From Patescibacteria group bacterium (lineage in GTDB: Bacteria; Patescibacteriota; Minisyncoccia; Phycocordibacterales; UBA9973), in the NCBI GenBank assembly GCA_038063915.1, contig JBBTUE010000001.1, positions 23,619 to 87,618 of the forward strand: 64,000 bases of DNA. Reading direction: 5' to 3'. How positions within the stretch are numbered: the stretch's first letter is position 1; every line of letters starts with the position of its first letter. This document shows positions 1-7,103 of the stretch, piece after piece. A program made the translations under genes and the position numbers. The notes below the pieces were generated by a model. It was not told where the DNA came from. It worked only from the letters and a program-made list of their open reading frames with translations, and searched no databases.

Positions 1-504
1 AATATCGTTAGTAAGTGAACAAAGCTCAGACACACGAAGACCCGTAGAGAATAAAAGTTCAAGAATGGATCTATCGCGCAGAGATTTTATGTCATCACCC
101 GGAGAAGCTTTGAGAAGGCGAGTAAGCTCACTACTAGAAATAAGATCAAGGTGACGCTCGGGCACTTTGGCTAAATCTATTTCTTCCGCGGACATTGATT
201 TTATATTTTTGCGAGTTAAATACTTCAAGAAAACACGAAGAGCTATCATGTAGTAATTCTGTGTCTTTCTTGAAACAGTTTTGCCCGTGGCTCTGTTGTT
301 GCCCATAGACTGGCGATTGAGCCACAACCGAAACTCGCGCACCGACGTGCTATCTATATCTTCCGGATTTTTAGCCTTTGAAAACTCTAAAAATCGAGTA
401 ATATAGTGGTCGTAATTCTCCACCGTTTTCAAGCTTCGGCCTTTTTCAATTTCTATATGTTCTAAAAATTCTCTCTTTAATTGTTCTAATTTATTAGTAG
501 CCAT
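1..504 (-). CDS. XerC/XerD-family tyrosine site-specific recombinase, N-terminal part (gene continues beyond window start)
   Basis: Minus-strand translation from ATG (504-502) gives MATNKLEQLKREFLEHIEIEKGRSLKTVENYDHYITRFLEF...SILELLFSTGLRVSELCSLTNDI. This is the SAM-like N-domain and the LLxxTGLRxSEL box typical of XerC/XerD. The ORF is open at position 1 and is absent from the ORF track because it is truncated. Confidence 0.7.
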   Translation of the reverse strand, partial: MATNKLEQLKREFLEHIEIEKGRSLKTVENYDHYITRFLEFSKAKNPEDIDSTSVREFRLWLNRQSMGNNRATGKTVSRKTQNYYMIALRVFLKYLTRKNIKSMSAEEIDLAKVPERHLDLISSSELTRLLKASPGDDIKSLRDRSILELLFSTGLRVSELCSLTNDI

Positions 505-564
505 ATTTATGCCTACACACCCTTGGAGTGTCGCACAATAATTTTACCACATTTTGTAATAAAA

Positions 565-594
565 ATAGCTACTTTAGTTAACTAAAGTAGCTAT
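565..594. promoter_or_regulatory. 30-bp perfect palindrome ATAGCTACTTTAGTTAACTAAAGTAGCTAT (11-6-11 architecture); intrinsic terminator for the 601-1497 gene and/or operator upstream of the xer-like gene
   Basis: Perfect inverted repeat followed on the minus strand by TTTTATT. Contains the AACTAAAGTA half-site twice (inverted), the same half-site found in the yerC-like promoter (3348-3375). Confidence 0.5.
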
Positions 595-600
595 TAATCC

Positions 601-1497
601 TCAAATGGATATACTTTTCAAGAAATCTATATAACTTCCAGATTCAGGTTGGCCTATAACCTTTCGTTCTATATCAGAACAATTAATAGCCTTGCTTGAA
701 GATTTTTCTATTTCTTTAAACAAAATTATTGTTTGATTTATACAAAATCTTGAAAATGCTTTGCGGAAACTCTTAGGAATAGAAGCCCACTCCTCCGGTT
801 CACCAAATGGTAATATATAAGGCAACCCTATATTTTTACTACCAGTTAAAGAACGTCCAGAAAATGGAATTCCAAGATAGAAATCTCTTTCACAAACTTC
901 GTCAATAACTTCATTATAGACTTTTGAACAGTGAATTTCTATTTTAGGATTAACATATGGATTGAGAACGAGATTAATTCCATTTTGTATCCCTATCCCA
1001 GCACAAATAATCGGGACACGAATCCCAATACGAGAAAGTAGTTTAAACACTCTCATCATAAAAACACCGGAGAAAATTACATCGTCCACCAAACACACCT
1101 CTTTAATTCCATGTGACTTTAATTGGTTCAACTGCTTTAAGAGTGAATAACTTCCAAAGCGACTTTGTAATCCTTTATTCACGCCTTGCAAATCGATCTT
1201 TCTGGTAAGTTCAATTGAAAAATCACAAGGGAAGTATACTGGATCAAGCGACACACAAGGTAAGTTGCTACTTTCTGTAACCATTTGCATATGACCTAAA
1301 ATTTCTTCTTCTGAAATAAATTCAAAGTCAGGAAATATCTGAAACATGTAATTTGAGAATTCCTTTCTTAACTCATCAAAGAATTCTTTTGTGGGTAAGA
1401 TAAAGCTTTTTTGCTTTGCCCATTTCTTAAGCAATAGATAAATGTCTGCTGAAACAACGTATTTCATATTTATAATTTTTAAGATGAAAGATAACAA
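601..1497 (-). CDS. hypothetical protein with type-I phosphoribosyltransferase-like PRPP-binding motif
   Basis: 298-aa ORF. The internal motif VCLVDDVIFSGVFMM resembles the PRTase PRPP loop (VLLVDDVxTTGxT). The rest is not assignable by eye. Palindromic hairpin plus U-tract at its 3' end (565-594). Confidence 0.4.
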   Translation of the reverse strand: MLSFILKIINMKYVVSADIYLLLKKWAKQKSFILPTKEFFDELRKEFSNYMFQIFPDFEFISEEEILGHMQMVTESSNLPCVSLDPVYFPCDFSIELTRKIDLQGVNKGLQSRFGSYSLLKQLNQLKSHGIKEVCLVDDVIFSGVFMMRVFKLLSRIGIRVPIICAGIGIQNGINLVLNPYVNPKIEIHCSKVYNEVIDEVCERDFYLGIPFSGRSLTGSKNIGLPYILPFGEPEEWASIPKSFRKAFSRFCINQTIILFKEIEKSSSKAINCSDIERKVIGQPESGSYIDFLKSISI

Positions 1498-2219
1498 TTA
1501 ATTTTTTGTTTTGAGAGTTTTTCAACATTCACAAAGAGACAGCCATCTTTTGTGCGTTTATAAGCATAAGGAAGAATGGGTATGTACTCTGTTGTTTCCG
1601 CCTTTATTGGTTTAAAACTATCGATATTTCTATTAAGTATATGGGGGAGTTCGCTTACCTTACCAATAACTCTATAGATAATTTTCTTATAAGATTTTGT
1701 TTTTTGCATATTGATATTTTCTAAAAAAATACGCAAGGTTCTTTCGAGTTCGTATTTGGCCTTTGGTATATTATTTAGTCCATATTCAATTTCAAATCCC
1801 GCACCTTTGAACAATTTTACGGAAGGTCCAGTTTTACTTTGGAGTGATTCCCATATTACTGTTTTTGGAATAGGTAATAACTCAGCAAGTTTGAATGAGT
1901 TTACTCGATTGATCTCATTACATAAGATAATGAATGGCTCATGTTTTTGTTTTGGTACCCCATGAATATCAACCACATAATCATATGCTTGCATGTAGTT
2001 GAATATTTTTAGAGCCCGTTTTTCTTCATAGGTACCACATTTTTTGCCCGGGAATACACGATTTAGATCAGATTCAATAAATCGAACGTTAGTCTTTATA
2101 GCTTTCGGATTACCAATAATATAGTCAAAGGATTTAAATTCTTTCCTTAACTTCTTAATCACAGAAATAGAATAATGTTCATTTCCGTGTGTGCCAACAA
2201 TGAATAGTAGTTTTTTCAT
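1479..2219 (-). CDS. AstE/AspA-family zinc hydrolase (succinylglutamate desuccinylase/aspartoacylase-like deacylase)
   Basis: N-terminal IVGTHGNEH (HxxE zinc ligands) and downstream DIHG motif characteristic of the AstE_AspA family. Overlaps the downstream gene by 19 nt, which suggests an operon. Confidence 0.5.
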   Translation of the reverse strand: MKKLLFIVGTHGNEHYSISVIKKLRKEFKSFDYIIGNPKAIKTNVRFIESDLNRVFPGKKCGTYEEKRALKIFNYMQAYDYVVDIHGVPKQKHEPFIILCNEINRVNSFKLAELLPIPKTVIWESLQSKTGPSVKLFKGAGFEIEYGLNNIPKAKYELERTLRIFLENINMQKTKSYKKIIYRVIGKVSELPHILNRNIDSFKPIKAETTEYIPILPYAYKRTKDGCLFVNVEKLSKQKINCYLSS

Positions 2220-2261
2220 TTTATTTGTTTTTAGTTATTAAATTTTCAAAGAACAATCTCT

Positions 2262-2292
2262 TCCTAAAAGAAAAACCTCTTCTGGGAAGAGG
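2262..2292 (-). terminator. Rho-independent terminator after the LOG-family gene
   Basis: CCTCTTC-TGG-GAAGAGG stem-loop followed by a U-tract on the minus strand. Confidence 0.5.
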
Positions 2293-2380
2293 TTGAGTGT
2301 AGAAAATTAAGTACTTTCAACAACCAGTCTCTTCTAAGAAAAGATGGGTGTGGTGAGCGGTATTTTTAATGTAATATCTT

Positions 2381-2920
2381 TTATTCATTATTCTTCTTAA
2401 TTAAAATGAGTATTTTTTCAACTGCCTCCTCTGGATTATCAACTCCTTCAATTTTTATTCTTTTCCTTTCGTCTAAGTACTGACCAGACAATTTATCACT
2501 CCACCCACCAGTATTTTTCATAGCAATAATTGGAATATTAGCTTGATAAGCAATTGCAATCTCAGTAAGTGTTCCAGAGCCTCCGCCAATTGTAATAATT
2601 CCGTCACAACTCAATATAAGAGCTGTTTCTCTACCACCACCCCTCTCGAGTCCTGTTGAAATAACAACATCCACATTTTCTTTCTCAAATATATCAAGCC
2701 CACGATTATATGTTAGACCCACAGTCAAACCACCTGCCTTTTTTGCTCCTCGGCAAGCTGCAGTAGAAAGTGAATCGTAATCTTTTTCCGCACCAAAAAT
2801 AAGAGTTGCACCATTTTTAGCAACTAGATAACCGATCTGTTCAGCTAGATTTTCTAATTTTTTTGAATAATTTAAGTCAGCTGCCGACCCCATAACGCCA
2901 ATTTGTATTTTTCTTTTCAT
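2381..2920 (-). CDS. TIGR00725/LOG-family Rossmann-fold nucleotide-binding protein (lysine-decarboxylase-like / nucleotide N-glycosidase family)
   Basis: 179 aa. GVMGSA N-terminus and ITIGGGSGTLTEIA (GGGxGT) motif of LOG/TIGR00725 proteins. Hairpin plus U-tract terminator downstream at 2262-2292. Confidence 0.55.
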   Translation of the reverse strand: MKRKIQIGVMGSAADLNYSKKLENLAEQIGYLVAKNGATLIFGAEKDYDSLSTAACRGAKKAGGLTVGLTYNRGLDIFEKENVDVVISTGLERGGGRETALILSCDGIITIGGGSGTLTEIAIAYQANIPIIAMKNTGGWSDKLSGQYLDERKRIKIEGVDNPEEAVEKILILIKKNNE

Positions 2921-2940
2921 AAACTTTGATACTAAATAAT

Positions 2941-2973
2941 AAAATTCCCTTCCTAAGAAAACTTAAGAAGGGG
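2941..2973 (-). terminator. Rho-independent terminator after the yerC-like gene
   Basis: 11-bp stem CCCTTCCTAAG/CTTAAGAAGGG (one mismatch), AAAA loop, U-rich tail on the minus strand. Confidence 0.5.
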
Positions 2974-2993
2974 TTGGTTTCGAAGTGTAGAGT

Positions 2994-3332
2994 TTAATTA
3001 CGCGTCAAAGACAATCCTTTCCCAAGTTTGGTAGGATTGTGATGATGATTTGATATACGAGAGAGGATAAGGCGATAGCCACCGAGCGAACCTTTGAGCC
3101 ATTTGGAGATGCGAGCAATGGTAGTAGAGGATAGGCCAGTTAGCTCTATAATCGAAGCATATTGAGTATCGCGGGAGAGTAGGCGAGCAGCTTCAAGGCG
3201 TTTGCCAAATTCTTCGATTTCGCCTGAAGTCATAAGATCGCGGAGAAAACGCTTGGCTTCATCTTTTGATTCCAAGGCTAAAATAGCATTTAAAAACTGA
3301 TTATTCTCTTTTTTACTCCAACTGGCTTCCAT
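2994..3332 (-). CDS. YerC/YecD-type Trp-repressor-like DNA-binding protein
   Basis: FLRDLMTSGEIEEFGKRLEAARLLSRDTQYASIIELTGLSSTTIARISKWLKGSLGGYRLILSR matches the YerC/YecD (TrpR-like, PF01371) pattern. Promoter with a palindromic operator lies immediately upstream (3339-3367). Confidence 0.6.
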   Translation of the reverse strand: MEASWSKKENNQFLNAILALESKDEAKRFLRDLMTSGEIEEFGKRLEAARLLSRDTQYASIIELTGLSSTTIARISKWLKGSLGGYRLILSRISNHHHNPTKLGKGLSLTRN

Positions 3333-3338
3333 ATATCC

Positions 3339-3367
3339 ACTTTATCGAACTAAAGTACTTTAGTCAA
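3339..3367 (-). promoter_or_regulatory. sigma70-like promoter of the yerC-like gene (-35 TTGACT, 17-nt spacer, -10 TAAAGT) with embedded 16-bp perfect palindrome ACTAAAGTACTTTAGT (3349-3364)
   Basis: Read on the minus strand: TTGACT-AAAGTACTTTAGTTCGA-TAAAGT, then 6 nt, then ATG (3332). The palindrome occupies the -35/spacer region, and a third AACTAAAGTA copy sits at 3366-3375. Flanked by inverted TATCCAC (3335-3341) / GTGGATA (3377-3383). Confidence 0.5.
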
Positions 3368-3417
3368 CTAAAGTATGTGGATAACTAATCTACATCAAAT
3401 AGGAAATGGGGCTGGGC

Positions 3418-3446
3418 TTGCAATTTTTTGTAAAATGTGCTAGTAT
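3418..3446 (+). promoter_or_regulatory. rpsO promoter (-35 TTGCAA, 17-nt spacer, extended -10 TGcTAGTAT)
   Basis: -10 ends 8 nt before ATG 3455 with no convincing SD. Confidence 0.4.
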
Positions 3447-3454
3447 ATAAGGGT

Positions 3455-3715
3455 ATGTTAACAACAAAGAAAAAGCAGAATATTATAAAGAAAAGCCAAA
3501 TTCACGATAAAGATACTGGCTCACCCGAAGTGCAGATAGCAATTCTAAGTAAAAAGATAGATGAGCTTGCCGTCCACCTAAAGGAACACAAAAAAGATAA
3601 CCACTCCCGCAGAGGTCTAATCAAGATGGTCGCAGATCGCCGAAAACATCTAAAACATCTAGAGAAGACAGACAAGACACGATTTGCAACTCAAACTAAA
3701 CTATTAAAAGCCTAA
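3455..3715 (+). CDS. rpsO: 30S ribosomal protein S15
   Basis: TGSPEVQIAILSKKIDELAVHLKEHKKDNHSRRGLIKMVADRRKHLKHL is the classic S15 signature. The track ORF starts at GTG 3437; the ATG at 3455 (MLTTKKK) fits S15 N-termini better. Terminator at 3721-3757. Confidence 0.9.
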   Translation: MLTTKKKQNIIKKSQIHDKDTGSPEVQIAILSKKIDELAVHLKEHKKDNHSRRGLIKMVADRRKHLKHLEKTDKTRFATQTKLLKA

Positions 3716-3720
3716 GCATC

Positions 3721-3757
3721 GTGTCCTCCGACCCCTGTCGGAGGACACTTTGTTTTG
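3721..3757 (+). terminator. Rho-independent terminator after rpsO
   Basis: GTGTCCTCCGAC-CCCT-GTCGGAGGACAC perfect 12-bp stem, followed by TTTGTTTTG. Confidence 0.8.
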
Positions 3758-3770
3758 ATACAATATATAC

Positions 3771-4277
3771 ATGAGCATAATTAAACACAAAGAACAGAGG
3801 GTCGGGGTATTTATAGATACTTCAAACCTTTACCATAGCGCTAAAAATTTATACAAACGAAAAGTAAACTTTGGGGCAGTACTAAAAGATGCTGTCGCAG
3901 GACGCAAACTCGTACGTGCAACAGCATACGTAATCACATCAGAAGGTGGAGAAGAAAAAAACTTTTTCGAAGCTCTGACTAAACTCGGCATTGAAACAAA
4001 GACAAAAGAACTCCAAATATTCTCTGGCGGAGCTAAAAAGGGCGACTGGGATGTAGGTATCGCAGTTGACGCAATGAAAATGGCTCCAAAGCTCGACGCA
4101 GTAGTGCTCGTCGCTGGCGACGGTGACTTTGTACCACTGGTAGAATATTTACAGAGTACTTCTGGTATTCAAGTCGAAGTAGTATCTTTTGGTAAGTCCT
4201 CCTCTATGAAATTAAAAGAAGTCGCCGACGACTTCCTCGACCTCTCCGAAAATCCAAGAAAATACCTAATATATTAA
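3771..4277 (+). CDS. NYN-domain (LabA/PIN-like) putative RNA nuclease
   Basis: RVGVFIDTSNLYHS...DVGIAVDAMKMA...VVLVAGDGDFVPLVEYLQ...QVEVVSFG is the NYN/LabA-like domain pattern. Confidence 0.6.
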   Translation: MSIIKHKEQRVGVFIDTSNLYHSAKNLYKRKVNFGAVLKDAVAGRKLVRATAYVITSEGGEEKNFFEALTKLGIETKTKELQIFSGGAKKGDWDVGIAVDAMKMAPKLDAVVLVAGDGDFVPLVEYLQSTSGIQVEVVSFGKSSSMKLKEVADDFLDLSENPRKYLIY

Positions 4278-4281
4278 TAAG

Positions 4282-4310
4282 AAAAAAGAACATCCGGAGA
4301 TGTTCTTTTT
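4282..4310. terminator. bidirectional hairpin terminator between convergent NYN gene and 4331-4768 gene
   Basis: AAAAAAGAACATC-CGGA-GATGTTCTTTTTT: 8-bp stem flanked by A-run and T-run. Confidence 0.65.
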
Positions 4311-4330
4311 TAAATTCAGCGGTGAATAAT

Positions 4331-4768
4331 TTAGTGTAATAATTTATCCTCACTACCATCATTCCCATCATCTATAGGACTTACATTGTGCTCTACGCCG
4401 AAATCAATTGAGACTTTTACTAAATAGCCATCACTTCTTACATAGTGATCAGTGCGCTTACCATGGCCAAGCTCGGTATAGATGTGAGGACCTTTACTGC
4501 CTGGCTTATGCGTTCTTGAGTGATTGTAACTGAAAGTAGTCTTGTTCACTTCAGTAATTGCACACTCAATGTAGGTAAGTGGTTTACCTTTACCACTAAA
4601 ATATGTAAGTATCGCAGCATGTTTTTTCCCGACGCATTTTTTCAACAAGTGCTGCATCTTTAAAAGAACTTTAAGGTATGGACCACAGAATCTTAACGCA
4701 CATACCTGCTCTATAGGGAGTGACCCGAATCCAATAAATGATACATTATTTGCGGTTATAGTTTTCAT
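4331..4768 (-). CDS. hypothetical protein
   Basis: 145-aa ORF with no motif recognisable by eye (Cys/His-containing: CALRFCGPY, HYVRSDGY). A bidirectional hairpin terminator (4282-4310) lies between its 3' end and the NYN gene. Confidence 0.35.
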   Translation of the reverse strand: MKTITANNVSFIGFGSLPIEQVCALRFCGPYLKVLLKMQHLLKKCVGKKHAAILTYFSGKGKPLTYIECAITEVNKTTFSYNHSRTHKPGSKGPHIYTELGHGKRTDHYVRSDGYLVKVSIDFGVEHNVSPIDDGNDGSEDKLLH

Positions 4769-4973
4769 GCTAAAAGATTTAAAAGGTTTGTTTTTTCTTC
4801 ACTTTATACCTTAATTTAAAGTAAGTCAAAGTGTTAATTAGACCCTTTATAAAATAGTGTCTTTCTGCTATGCTATCGGTATTAGTAGATAATAATAGTT
4901 ATTCTCCAGACGGATAGAGTTGAAACCAATACAGAGTTTCAAAACTAGGGTCTGGAGGGGAGCTCATATATAT

Positions 4974-7103
4974 ATGCATAGGAAAGAATACGAGGTAGAA
5001 ATCGGTGGTAAGAAGATTACTGCTATTTTCAGTGATTTAGCAGAGCAAGCTAATGGCTCAGTCATGCTCGAGTGCGAGGGTACAGTAATTATGGCTACGG
5101 CTGTAATATCGAAAAGCGGAGAGAATAACCCGGGATTTTTTAACTTAACAGTTGAATACTTAGAGAAGTTCTACGCTTCCGGCAAGATTCTTGGCAGTCA
5201 ATTCATGCGCCGAGAGGGTAGACCATCGGACCAAGCCATACTCGCAGCTCGAATGACAGACCGTACTATCCGCCCACTTTTCGACCACCACATAAAAAAT
5301 GCAGTCCAAGTCATTATCACAGTCATTGCAATCGGCGGTGCTGACCCAAAAACTCTAGCAATCAACGCCGCATCTATAGTGCTTTATATATCAGATATCC
5401 CATGGAAAGGTCCTATTGGAGCAGTACATATAAGCAAAGCCCGTGGCGACTCTACATTAAAAGTAAATAATTATATTCCAAACTCTGATGAGGCAGTATA
5501 TGATCTTGATCTACTAGTATGTGGTAAAGAACAAACTATAAATATGATCGAGTCTATGGCATTTGAACTTGGTGAAGAAGAAATGGGTAAATGTTTTGAC
5601 ACTGCAATGGTTGAAATTACAAAGTGGGAAGAATTTCAAAAGAAACTAAAGAAAGAACTTGGTAAAGAAAAACTTCTATTTCCTAAATTAGAAACACCGA
5701 GTGAGGTAATAGAACTTTTTAACGAAAAGGTGAAACCTATCTTAGATAAAGGATTATTCAGTAAAGACAGCAAGAAAATTACTGCTGAGGCAGAAGTAGT
5801 TTGGAAAAATACTATTGATGAGAAATATGAGAAGGACGATATCCAATCAAAATATGTTGCCCATGACTATATGCATCATTATCTAGATCATGCATTTCAC
5901 AACGAAGCTATTCTAAATAACGCGCGCGCAGATGGTAGAGCTCTAGATGAAGTGCGTGGACTCTATGCGAAAGCTGGAGGAATATCTCCCTCCCTTCATG
6001 GTTCGGGAATATTTTATCGTGGTGAGACTCACGTCCTATCTGTACTTACCCTTGCAGGACCAGAGAGTATGCATACGATTGATGGCATAGAATTTTCTGC
6101 AAAGAAAAGATTCATGCATCATTATAATTTCCCTCCATATTCAAGTGGTGAGACTGGCCGTGTCGGTGCTACGAGTCGTAGAGAAATGGGCCACGGCTTC
6201 CTCGTTGAGAAAGCTCTGACTCCCGTCATGCCTGACAAAATCTTATTCCCATATACAGTACGTGTTGTATCCGAATCTGTAGCTTCAAACGGATCGACAT
6301 CCCAAGCATCAATTTGCGCTACAACTATTACCTTAATGGATGGAGGAGTGCCTATCAAGGCGCCGGTAGCTGGTATATCAATAGGTGCAATGATAGATGA
6401 AAAAGATAAAAATAAATACGTACTCCTCACTGACATCCAAGGGCCAGAAGATCACTACGGCGATATGGATTTCAAAGTAGCCGGAACTTCAGATGGTATC
6501 ACAGCCATACAGCTTGATGTAAAAGTAGATGGAATCCCAGCTTCTATTTTAAAAGAAGCTCTAACTCGTGCTAAAGTAGCAAGACTAAAAATCTTAGAAA
6601 CTATTAAAACAGAAATAGCTACACCACGCCCAAATATCTCACCAAACGCTCCGATGATACTCACTGTCAAAATCAAGAAAGATCAAATCGGTATGATTAT
6701 CGGCCCAGGAGGTAAGAATGTAAACGCAATTCGTGAAGAGACAGGAGCCGAAATTACAATTGAAGAAGACGGTACCGTATTTATCACTGGAAAAAATGGC
6801 GGAGCAGAGAAGGCCAAGAAAATTATTGAAGATATGACCCACGAGTACACAGTTGGTGACCTTGCCTCAGGTGAAGTAGTAAAGCTTATGGACTTCGGTG
6901 CATTCGTTAAAATAGCGACTGGCACAGAAGGGCTAGTGCACGTATCTGAAATTGCCCCATTCCGTGTAGAAAAAGTTTCTGATATTCTTAAGGAAGGCGA
7001 CAAGGTTCCAGTGAAGATAATAAAAGTAGATGAGAAGGGACGTTTGAATTTATCCATCAAAGAAGCTGACCCTAACTTCTTTAAACCAAATGGAGGAAAA
7101 TAA
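4974..7103 (+). CDS. pnp: polynucleotide phosphorylase (PNPase)
   Basis: Two RNase-PH-like domains, KH (IGMIIGPGGKNVNAIREETGAEI) and S1 (YTVGDLASGEVVKLMDFGAFVKI) domains. The track ORF starts at TTG 4920; the ATG at 4974 (MHRKEYEVEIGGKKI) aligns with PNPase N-termini. GGAGGGG lies upstream. Confidence 0.9.
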   Translation: MHRKEYEVEIGGKKITAIFSDLAEQANGSVMLECEGTVIMATAVISKSGENNPGFFNLTVEYLEKFYASGKILGSQFMRREGRPSDQAILAARMTDRTIRPLFDHHIKNAVQVIITVIAIGGADPKTLAINAASIVLYISDIPWKGPIGAVHISKARGDSTLKVNNYIPNSDEAVYDLDLLVCGKEQTINMIESMAFELGEEEMGKCFDTAMVEITKWEEFQKKLKKELGKEKLLFPKLETPSEVIELFNEKVKPILDKGLFSKDSKKITAEAEVVWKNTIDEKYEKDDIQSKYVAHDYMHHYLDHAFHNEAILNNARADGRALDEVRGLYAKAGGISPSLHGSGIFYRGETHVLSVLTLAGPESMHTIDGIEFSAKKRFMHHYNFPPYSSGETGRVGATSRREMGHGFLVEKALTPVMPDKILFPYTVRVVSESVASNGSTSQASICATTITLMDGGVPIKAPVAGISIGAMIDEKDKNKYVLLTDIQGPEDHYGDMDFKVAGTSDGITAIQLDVKVDGIPASILKEALTRAKVARLKILETIKTEIATPRPNISPNAPMILTVKIKKDQIGMIIGPGGKNVNAIREETGAEITIEEDGTVFITGKNGGAEKAKKIIEDMTHEYTVGDLASGEVVKLMDFGAFVKIATGTEGLVHVSEIAPFRVEKVSDILKEGDKVPVKIIKVDEKGRLNLSIKEADPNFFKPNGGK

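Follow-up and report, generated by a model that had tools for sequence, protein, structure and literature searches.

The TrpR protein of Escherichia coli, a small repressor built entirely of helices, forms dimers, depends on a co-repressor and binds DNA as tandem dimers. Its palindromic operators at trp, aroH and trpR overlap the promoters they serve, TrpR represses its own gene, and we know of no TrpR operators at the far ends of gene strings. In Bacillus subtilis, the product of yerC is HisR, a histidine repressor of the same family (PMC9413887). Across Firmicutes, Actinobacteria and Synergistetes, HisR operators follow one 20-bp palindromic consensus, cacTTTAnnnnnnTAAAgtg (Ashniev et al. 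2022, PMC9413887). For the HisR protein of R. gnavus this motif was confirmed in a DNA-binding assay; autoregulation is frequent in the family, and histidine is the co-repressor of the characterised proteins (PMC9413887). The Patescibacteria lie outside the coverage of that regulon study (PMC9413887), and a literature search returned no paper linking HisR to them. Here we analyse a 64,000-nucleotide stretch from a Patescibacteria group bacterium (contig JBBTUE010000001.1, positions 23,619 to 87,618; hereafter the window), in which two sites built from the same inverted half-sites, Site A (564 to 595) and Site B (3339 to 3374), lie at the two ends of a four-gene string led by a yerC-like gene, which we call hisR (2994 to 3332, minus strand). 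Searches for identical proteins trace the window to a Patescibacterium from Hainich groundwater. A preliminary description of this DNA had offered three readings of the two sites: an intrinsic terminator plus operator at Site A, recombination sites of an adjacent Xer-like recombinase, or operators of the YerC-like regulator that would also control the recombinase. We consider it probable, judging from the sequence comparisons below, that both sites are operators of the HisR/YerC-type repressor transcribed from 3332 towards 2994, and that they serve ordinary gene regulation.

The element common to Sites A and B is ACTTTA-N6-TAAAGT, which matches the published HisR consensus exactly. Site A had been described as a perfect 11-6-11 palindrome about 60 bp before the xer gene; this unit is present, within a longer perfect palindrome of 32 bp, AATAGCTACTTTAGTTAACTAAAGTAGCTATT, that spans 564 to 595 and has no strand of its own. 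Its 18-bp operator core, ACTTTAGTTAACTAAAGT, occupies 571 to 588. On one side Site A begins 5 nt past the stop codon (601 to 603) of the last gene of the string, and on the other it ends 60 bp before the xer ATG (504, minus strand). Site B consists of two abutting 18-mers on the minus strand. The one distal to hisR, ACTTTAGTCAACTAAAGT (3357 to 3374), contains a -35 hexamer, TTGACT (3367 to 3362), and the proximal one, ACTTTATCGAACTAAAGT (3339 to 3356), contains a -10 hexamer, TAAAGT (3344 to 3339), and leaves 6 nt between its end and the ATG of hisR. The preliminary description had correctly seen the shared half-sites at Site B, while its range of 3347 to 3376 covers part of the double site. 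Thus three copies in the window (571 to 588, 3339 to 3356 and 3357 to 3374) match the HisR consensus at 12 of 12 core positions, and the Site A 18-mer differs from the distal operator of Site B at a single central base.

We then asked how often such a motif would be expected in the window. With up to three mismatches allowed, the 18-mer ACTTTAGTYAACTAAAGT gave six strand-matches, all at Sites A and B, against 0.45 expected, and six matches were reached in none of 100 shuffled controls. The 10-mer AACTAAAGTA showed no enrichment alone (14 matches with up to one mismatch, 11 expected); its four exact copies all lie within the two sites. In the window together with 7 kb of left flank taken from contig L007 (71 kb in all), exact ACTTTA-N6-TAAAGT was confined to A and B, and copies with up to two mismatches occurred at chance frequency. 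We also considered as a fourth operator a TTGACT-17-TAAAGT sequence on the minus strand (4829 to 4801), and rejected it; its HisR-like half-sites are wrongly spaced. It lies upstream of a gene for a hypothetical protein of 145 amino acids (4768 to 4331) and is probably a plain promoter.

The protein encoded by hisR, of 112 amino acids, belongs to the same family as the described HisR proteins. It matches PF01371 (E 1.8e-16, 60.4 bits, cut-off 27) and passes the YerC/YecD model TIGR02531 with 62.4 bits (cut-off 42.2), whereas it reaches only 22.5 bits on the TrpR model TIGR01321, for which the cut-off is 67. In the PDB it matches 3KOR, 3FRW and 3G1C (E. eligens HisR) with E values of 2e-11 to 2e-10. 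We compared the locus with 80 loci encoding hisR orthologues (53–87% protein identity), in which genes were called with a simple open reading frame (ORF) picker. The recognition helix is invariant among them. In 73 of the 80 loci, two operators with a spacing of exactly 18 bp stand directly before the hisR start codon, with the consensus ACTTTAcTTGACTAAAGT for the distal and ACTTTAgTTTGcTAAAGT for the proximal member. The pair encloses TTGACT-17-TAAAGT, which a promoter scan also finds in the window (3367 to 3339). Because this double operator with its embedded promoter is conserved before hisR in 73 of 80 loci, we assign Site B as the predicted autoregulatory promoter/operator of hisR. In most orthologous loci the proximal operator ends about 4–10 nt before the start codon; since the -10 hexamer ends at that same distance from the ATG, the hisR mRNA is probably leaderless or nearly so. 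One locus, L020 (5654 to 6001), has its double operator set apart from the hisR start by about 310 bp of GC-richer DNA, which could reflect an insertion or a long leader.

The promoter region carries a further element, AAAAGTTATCCACA, with the DnaA-box consensus TTATCCACA on the minus strand at 3376 to 3384, 1 bp upstream of the distal operator. Exact copies of this box occur twice in the whole window, this one included. Of 77 orthologous loci (from the set L011–L090), 47 have a DnaA box before the distal operator, always 1–3 or 10–13 bp away and usually with AAAAG first, and seven more have it in the reverse orientation, against a background of 0.03 per 83 bp. We regard this phased DnaA-box-like element, together with the operators at the far ends of hisR strings described below, as minor points and not as major surprises. 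All genes from 3332 down to position 1 lie on the minus strand; from 3455 onwards, rpsO, an NYN-domain gene and pnp are read divergently, on the plus strand. The orientation thus flips at about 3.4 kb, and the GC skew changes sign at about 4–5 kb. Along with the DnaA box, these features hint at a replication-related boundary, with the qualification that only 3.4 kb of the window lies to the left of the flip.

At Site A, both operator-like and terminator-like features were found. Half-site statistics placed the outer limit of the operator consensus near position -13 (aGCTACTTTAsT). Both halves of Site A agree with this extended consensus from -13 to -1, and the site therefore looks like an idealised symmetric operator. 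Read on the minus strand, it was also returned by a terminator scan: the predicted hairpin, which starts 5 nt past the stop codon, has a stem of 14 bp and a loop of 4 nt and runs into the T-rich tail TTTATTACAA. The RNA fold reaches -22.8 kcal/mol (z -4.8), with a stem that is AT-rich (four G-C pairs out of 14). The hairpin after the stop codon followed by a T-run is what an intrinsic terminator has; the AT-rich stem, and the fact that the sequence itself is conserved as a predicted protein-binding motif, set Site A apart from one. Terminator plus operator, the first of the three original readings, remains the closest description of Site A in light of the scan, the fold and the half-site match.

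One could go further and suppose that Site A is merely an intrinsic terminator with an incidental resemblance to an operator. Its good fold and terminator score would fit such a view, as would the ordinary terminators that relatives have in its place. We nevertheless find it very improbable, since Site A matches the consensus at all 12 core and four flanking positions on both halves, differs from the distal operator of Site B at one central base, and belongs to a motif expected by chance 0.45 times per 64 kb even with three mismatches. The motif moreover recurs at far ends elsewhere, and many of those copies fold poorly or come as tandem doubles. Across the 80 loci we found 39 further HisR sites (up to one mismatch) outside hisR promoters, of which 20 fall in convergent intergenic regions, a class that makes up 2.2% of the sequence. 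The convergent region that closes a hisR-led run contained a site in 13 of 62 loci, compared with 3 of 75 for other convergent regions. In L061, L083 and L075, the far-end sites are tandem doubles with the 18-bp spacing seen at the promoter, and none of the loci with far-end operators has an Xer gene nearby. A far-end operator is thus a recurrent, though minority, feature of hisR strings, seen in at least 13 species besides this one. Termination alone was rejected as a general account of far-end sites, most of which fail as good hairpins, and for the same reason protein binding, not RNA structure, would be their common denominator.

The gene beyond Site A encodes an Xer-like tyrosine recombinase. 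In XerS-difSL and XerH-difH systems the recombination site adjoins the recombinase gene, and the locus resembles these systems, and integrative mobile elements exploiting Xer (IMEX), in that its one Xer-like recombinase gene has an 11-6-11 palindrome some 60 bp away. Sites A and B could accordingly be Xer core sites that delimit an invertible or excisable cassette (595 to 3346). The proposal has some appeal in that syntenic relatives differ in the genes they have between hisR and xer (0.4 to 3.9 kb), and that three contigs end exactly at Site A. We consider it extremely unlikely for the following reasons. The 11-6-11 arrangement of arms and spacer expected of a dif-type site is there at Site A; it does not discriminate, because a HisR operator has the same symmetry. 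The motif is that of HisR and accompanies hisR in about 75 species whether or not an Xer gene is nearby, and many genomes carry it without one. A dif site, by contrast, is expected to be conserved with its recombinase, and 10 of 11 syntenic relatives have orthologous xer genes without this sequence.

The relatives in question are L011–L014, L028, L039, L048, L051, L062, L076 and L087, which share the order pnp, NYN gene, rpsO / hisR, variable region, xer, xth, and whose Xer proteins are 59–95% identical to that of the window. No HisR site was found within 200 bp before xer in 10 of these 11, among them L013, which has the 95% identical Xer. What separates hisR from xer in this set is a slot of variable content, 0.4–3.9 kb long, holding only an ORF of 67–166 amino acids, SLOG and phosphoribosyltransferase (PRTase)-like genes, hutH and a nitrilase gene, or other genes. 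Presence or absence of cargo, which the preliminary description had proposed to compare, does therefore vary in this slot; Sites A and B are nonetheless not the end points of the variation. Recombination between A and B would remove hisR, which lies inside the bracketed segment, yet in relatives without cargo both hisR and Site B are still present, and there is no scar site.

We also looked for structural variation among assembled contigs. Ten out of ten contigs from independent assemblies are colinear with the window at 99.3–100% identity; three cross Site A and five cross Site B, and none contains the junctions predicted for a deletion, a circle or an inversion. The inverted or excised forms of 595 to 3346 that had been suggested as a check are thus absent from these contigs. 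The contigs that stop at Site A (L001, L006 and L010) end at position 566, inside the palindrome, and all are Logan assemblies, while three ENA assemblies cross the site. We rejected these ends as structural variation and attribute them to a probable k-mer graph artefact: Logan assembly presumably used k = 31, so that its graph would fold back on a perfect palindrome of 32 bp. With the motif identified as a HisR operator, the syntenic xer genes lacking it and the contigs colinear, the idea that A and B are recombination sites of the neighbouring Xer was not borne out.

The recombinase itself looks like a vertically inherited, housekeeping-type member of a conserved xer-xth core with its own promoter box. 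The window holds the N-terminal 168 amino acids (1 to 504, minus strand), and the full protein of 308 amino acids is found in contig L007, where the gene is overlapped by the downstream exodeoxyribonuclease III gene (xth). With 245 bits, this complete protein passes NF040815 XerA_Arch (cut-off 220); on the XerD and XerC models it reaches 250 and 240 bits, both just under their cut-offs. No second Xer paralogue was found in the 64-kb window. The xer promoter region (527 to 549, minus strand) comprises an extended -10, TGgTAAAAT (549 to 541), and after it the conserved box TTATTGTGCGACACT. In its 15-bp form, TTATTGTGCGACAYT (in the region 527 to 546), the box does not vary among the 12 syntenic xer-xth loci, is unique in the window, and lies just after or just before the -10 hexamer depending on the locus. 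We considered this box as a dif candidate and rejected it, as it is 15 bp long and non-palindromic.

The position of this promoter raises another possibility, that Site A is also an operator for the xer-xth transcript, coupling the recombinase and exonuclease III to the repressor ligand. Counted from the predicted extended -10 promoter, the 20-bp core of Site A covers roughly -35 to -55, and such control would be compatible with Site A acting as a terminator or as an auxiliary operator. L062, the sole syntenic relative with a HisR site upstream of xer, might be taken as a parallel; its site is 124 bp away, with a hairpin between it and the xer promoter. Just upstream of the xer promoter, at the position equivalent to Site A, most syntenic relatives have ordinary GC-stem terminators, and 10 of 11 have either an ordinary terminator or no hairpin there. 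The absence of a HisR site before xer in 10 of 11 relatives, L013 among them, speaks against this additional role, and so does the finding that, in most species, what lies across from a far-end site is the 3' end of a convergent gene, with no promoter to act on. We therefore judge repression of xer-xth unlikely. Of the third original reading, the part that makes both sites operators of the YerC-like regulator agrees with the motif identity and with the conservation of Site B; control of the recombinase is not conserved and would at best apply to this genome.

Returning to A and B as operators of the hisR-encoded repressor, we propose the following mechanism. A HisR-like dimer with its co-repressor, presumably a small molecule, would bind the double operator of Site B and the single operator of Site A. 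As Site B overlaps the -35 and -10 elements of hisR, bound repressor would shut off transcription of hisR together with read-through into the SLOG, AstE/AspA-like and PRTase-like genes. Site A most likely also terminates the gene string, because the transcribed strand shows a 14-bp hairpin followed by a T-run. In addition, Site A would probably be an auxiliary operator that works together with those at the promoter, by forming a repression loop or as a boundary; such cooperation is suggested by the recurrence of far-end operators of hisR-led strings in other species. The arrangement recalls lac O2, gal OI, deo and lambda OL-OR, in which the operator at the promoter has a partner downstream at a distance of hundreds to thousands of bp, and the tandem sites at both ends in L061 and L083 add to the likeness. 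It differs from these systems in that looping is here an inference only.

Several observations weigh against this model. To our knowledge, looping has not been described for TrpR-family proteins. Far-end operators occur in only about a fifth of the species, and under a strict test of stem continuity most far-end sites are poor hairpins. The closest carriers of SLOG and PRTase-like genes (L039, L051, L091 and L092) have no operator after the PRTase-like gene, and Site A is accordingly not conserved at the level of the species group. Co-transcription of the four genes is uncertain, because terminator-like hairpins follow both hisR and the SLOG gene. Finally, the effector may not be histidine, since the 64-kb window is without a histidine gene.

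The names given to the four genes in the preliminary description (PRTase-like, AstE/AspA-like, LOG-like and yerC-like) were upheld by Pfam, TIGRFAM and fold searches. Downstream of hisR and a terminator-like hairpin (2947 to 2972) lies a LOG-like gene of SLOG cluster 4 (2381 to 2920), which matches PF18306 (E 9e-32) and scores 88.6 bits on TIGR00725, under the cut-off of 106.9. A literature search on SLOG cluster 4 returned nothing useful. The gene is followed by a second terminator-like hairpin (2274 to 2294); both hairpins were found by terminator scan and RNA fold and, like the genes, lie on the minus strand. This hairpin sits in a 160-bp spacer (2220 to 2380) that is long for a compact genome and has no Rfam match; more widely, an Rfam scan of positions 1 to 5000 (E up to 1) detected no riboswitch or other RNA family. 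Next comes an AstE/AspA-family, zinc deacylase-like gene (1479 to 2219; PF24827, E 3.9e-15). The last gene (601 to 1467) encodes a protein of 288 amino acids from a hypothetical-protein family widespread in Patescibacteria. It had no Pfam match above cut-off, with sequence-level support for a PRTase below threshold, and PDB sequence searches with the single sequence and with a profile gave nothing significant. Its AlphaFold 2 model has a predicted local distance difference test (pLDDT) score of 93.4, and in a Foldseek search of the PDB all top matches were type-I phosphoribosyltransferases (E from 5e-5, target-normalised template modelling scores 0.33–0.46). The predicted PRTase fold of this protein is thus identified by fold search alone.

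As in the HisR regulons of Firmicutes, Actinobacteria and Synergistetes, the locus combines a PF01371/TIGR02531 family protein, an operator of the form cacTTTA-N6-TAAAgtg and an autoregulatory site (PMC9413887). The genes downstream differ, being SLOG, AstE/AspA-like and PRTase-like instead of histidine biosynthesis or transport genes, and no his, hisS or hut gene was found in the 64-kb window. Histidine biosynthesis or uptake genes as targets, lacking at this locus, are found for the orthologue group: in L020, L021, L026, L031 and L049, hisR is followed on the same strand by hisS, hisG, hisI, an aminotransferase gene and hisD, and in L012 and L013 by hutH and a nitrilase gene. The his genes or hutH that follow hisR in these species identify the orthologue group as HisR-like. 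Elsewhere the downstream genes include one for phosphoribosyl pyrophosphate (PRPP) synthase or a GNAT gene with an AstE-like gene, each in some species, and in many species the SLOG and PRTase-like genes. In L074 (6427 to 7970), the gene after SLOG falls in a HisG (ATP phosphoribosyltransferase) BLAST cluster, in the place of the PRTase-like gene, and a far-end HisR site follows again; SLOG and some PRTase may, on this substitution, form a functional pair.

A module of a TrpR-like regulator, SLOG cluster 4, an optional PfkB kinase and a PRTase-fold protein of the 288-amino-acid type is present in distant lineages: Jorgensenbacteria, Taylorbacteria and another lineage (L093, 3238 to 5861; L094, 1769 to 3709; L095, 3882 to 5867). 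In the Jorgensenbacteria and Taylorbacteria, one HisR-type site stands ahead of the regulator gene and another in the gap that separates it from SLOG. Because of this second site, SLOG and the PRTase are predicted to be direct HisR-type targets in those genomes. A metagenome scan with the PRTase-like protein returned only two loci, and in both we found no hisR, no xer and no HisR sites.

Other differences from the described HisR regulons are the fixed tandem double operator with a DnaA-box-like element at the promoter and the extra operator at the far end. Compared with E. coli TrpR, the operator itself is distinct (TGTAcTnGTnnACnAgTACA for TrpR, cACTTTA-N6-TAAAGTg in the window). What is new relative to known HisR systems is the phylum, the local targets outside histidine metabolism and the far-end operator; the locus is not a mobile or invertible element. 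A broader picture can be drawn, in which HisR of Patescibacteria is a near-universal local regulator that brackets variable cargo with operators at both ends, a tandem pair on the promoter side and one or two distally, forming a repression loop or an insulated domain. The phased DnaA box would add an input from the replication state, and in lineages like this one histidine biosynthesis would have given way, as the target of the regulon, to a SLOG and PRTase nucleotide/PRPP module, possibly with another ligand. We hold this picture doubtful as a whole.

These results strike a candidate mobile or invertible cassette off the list, and assign a testable regulator–operator pair to an uncultured groundwater Patescibacterium. 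They extend the HisR family to the Patescibacteria, where it is highly conserved and, depending on the lineage, stands ahead of histidine genes or of a module of SLOG and PRTase-fold proteins. The association with hisR also provides a handle on the role that the SLOG–PRTase pair may have in these salvage-dependent organisms.

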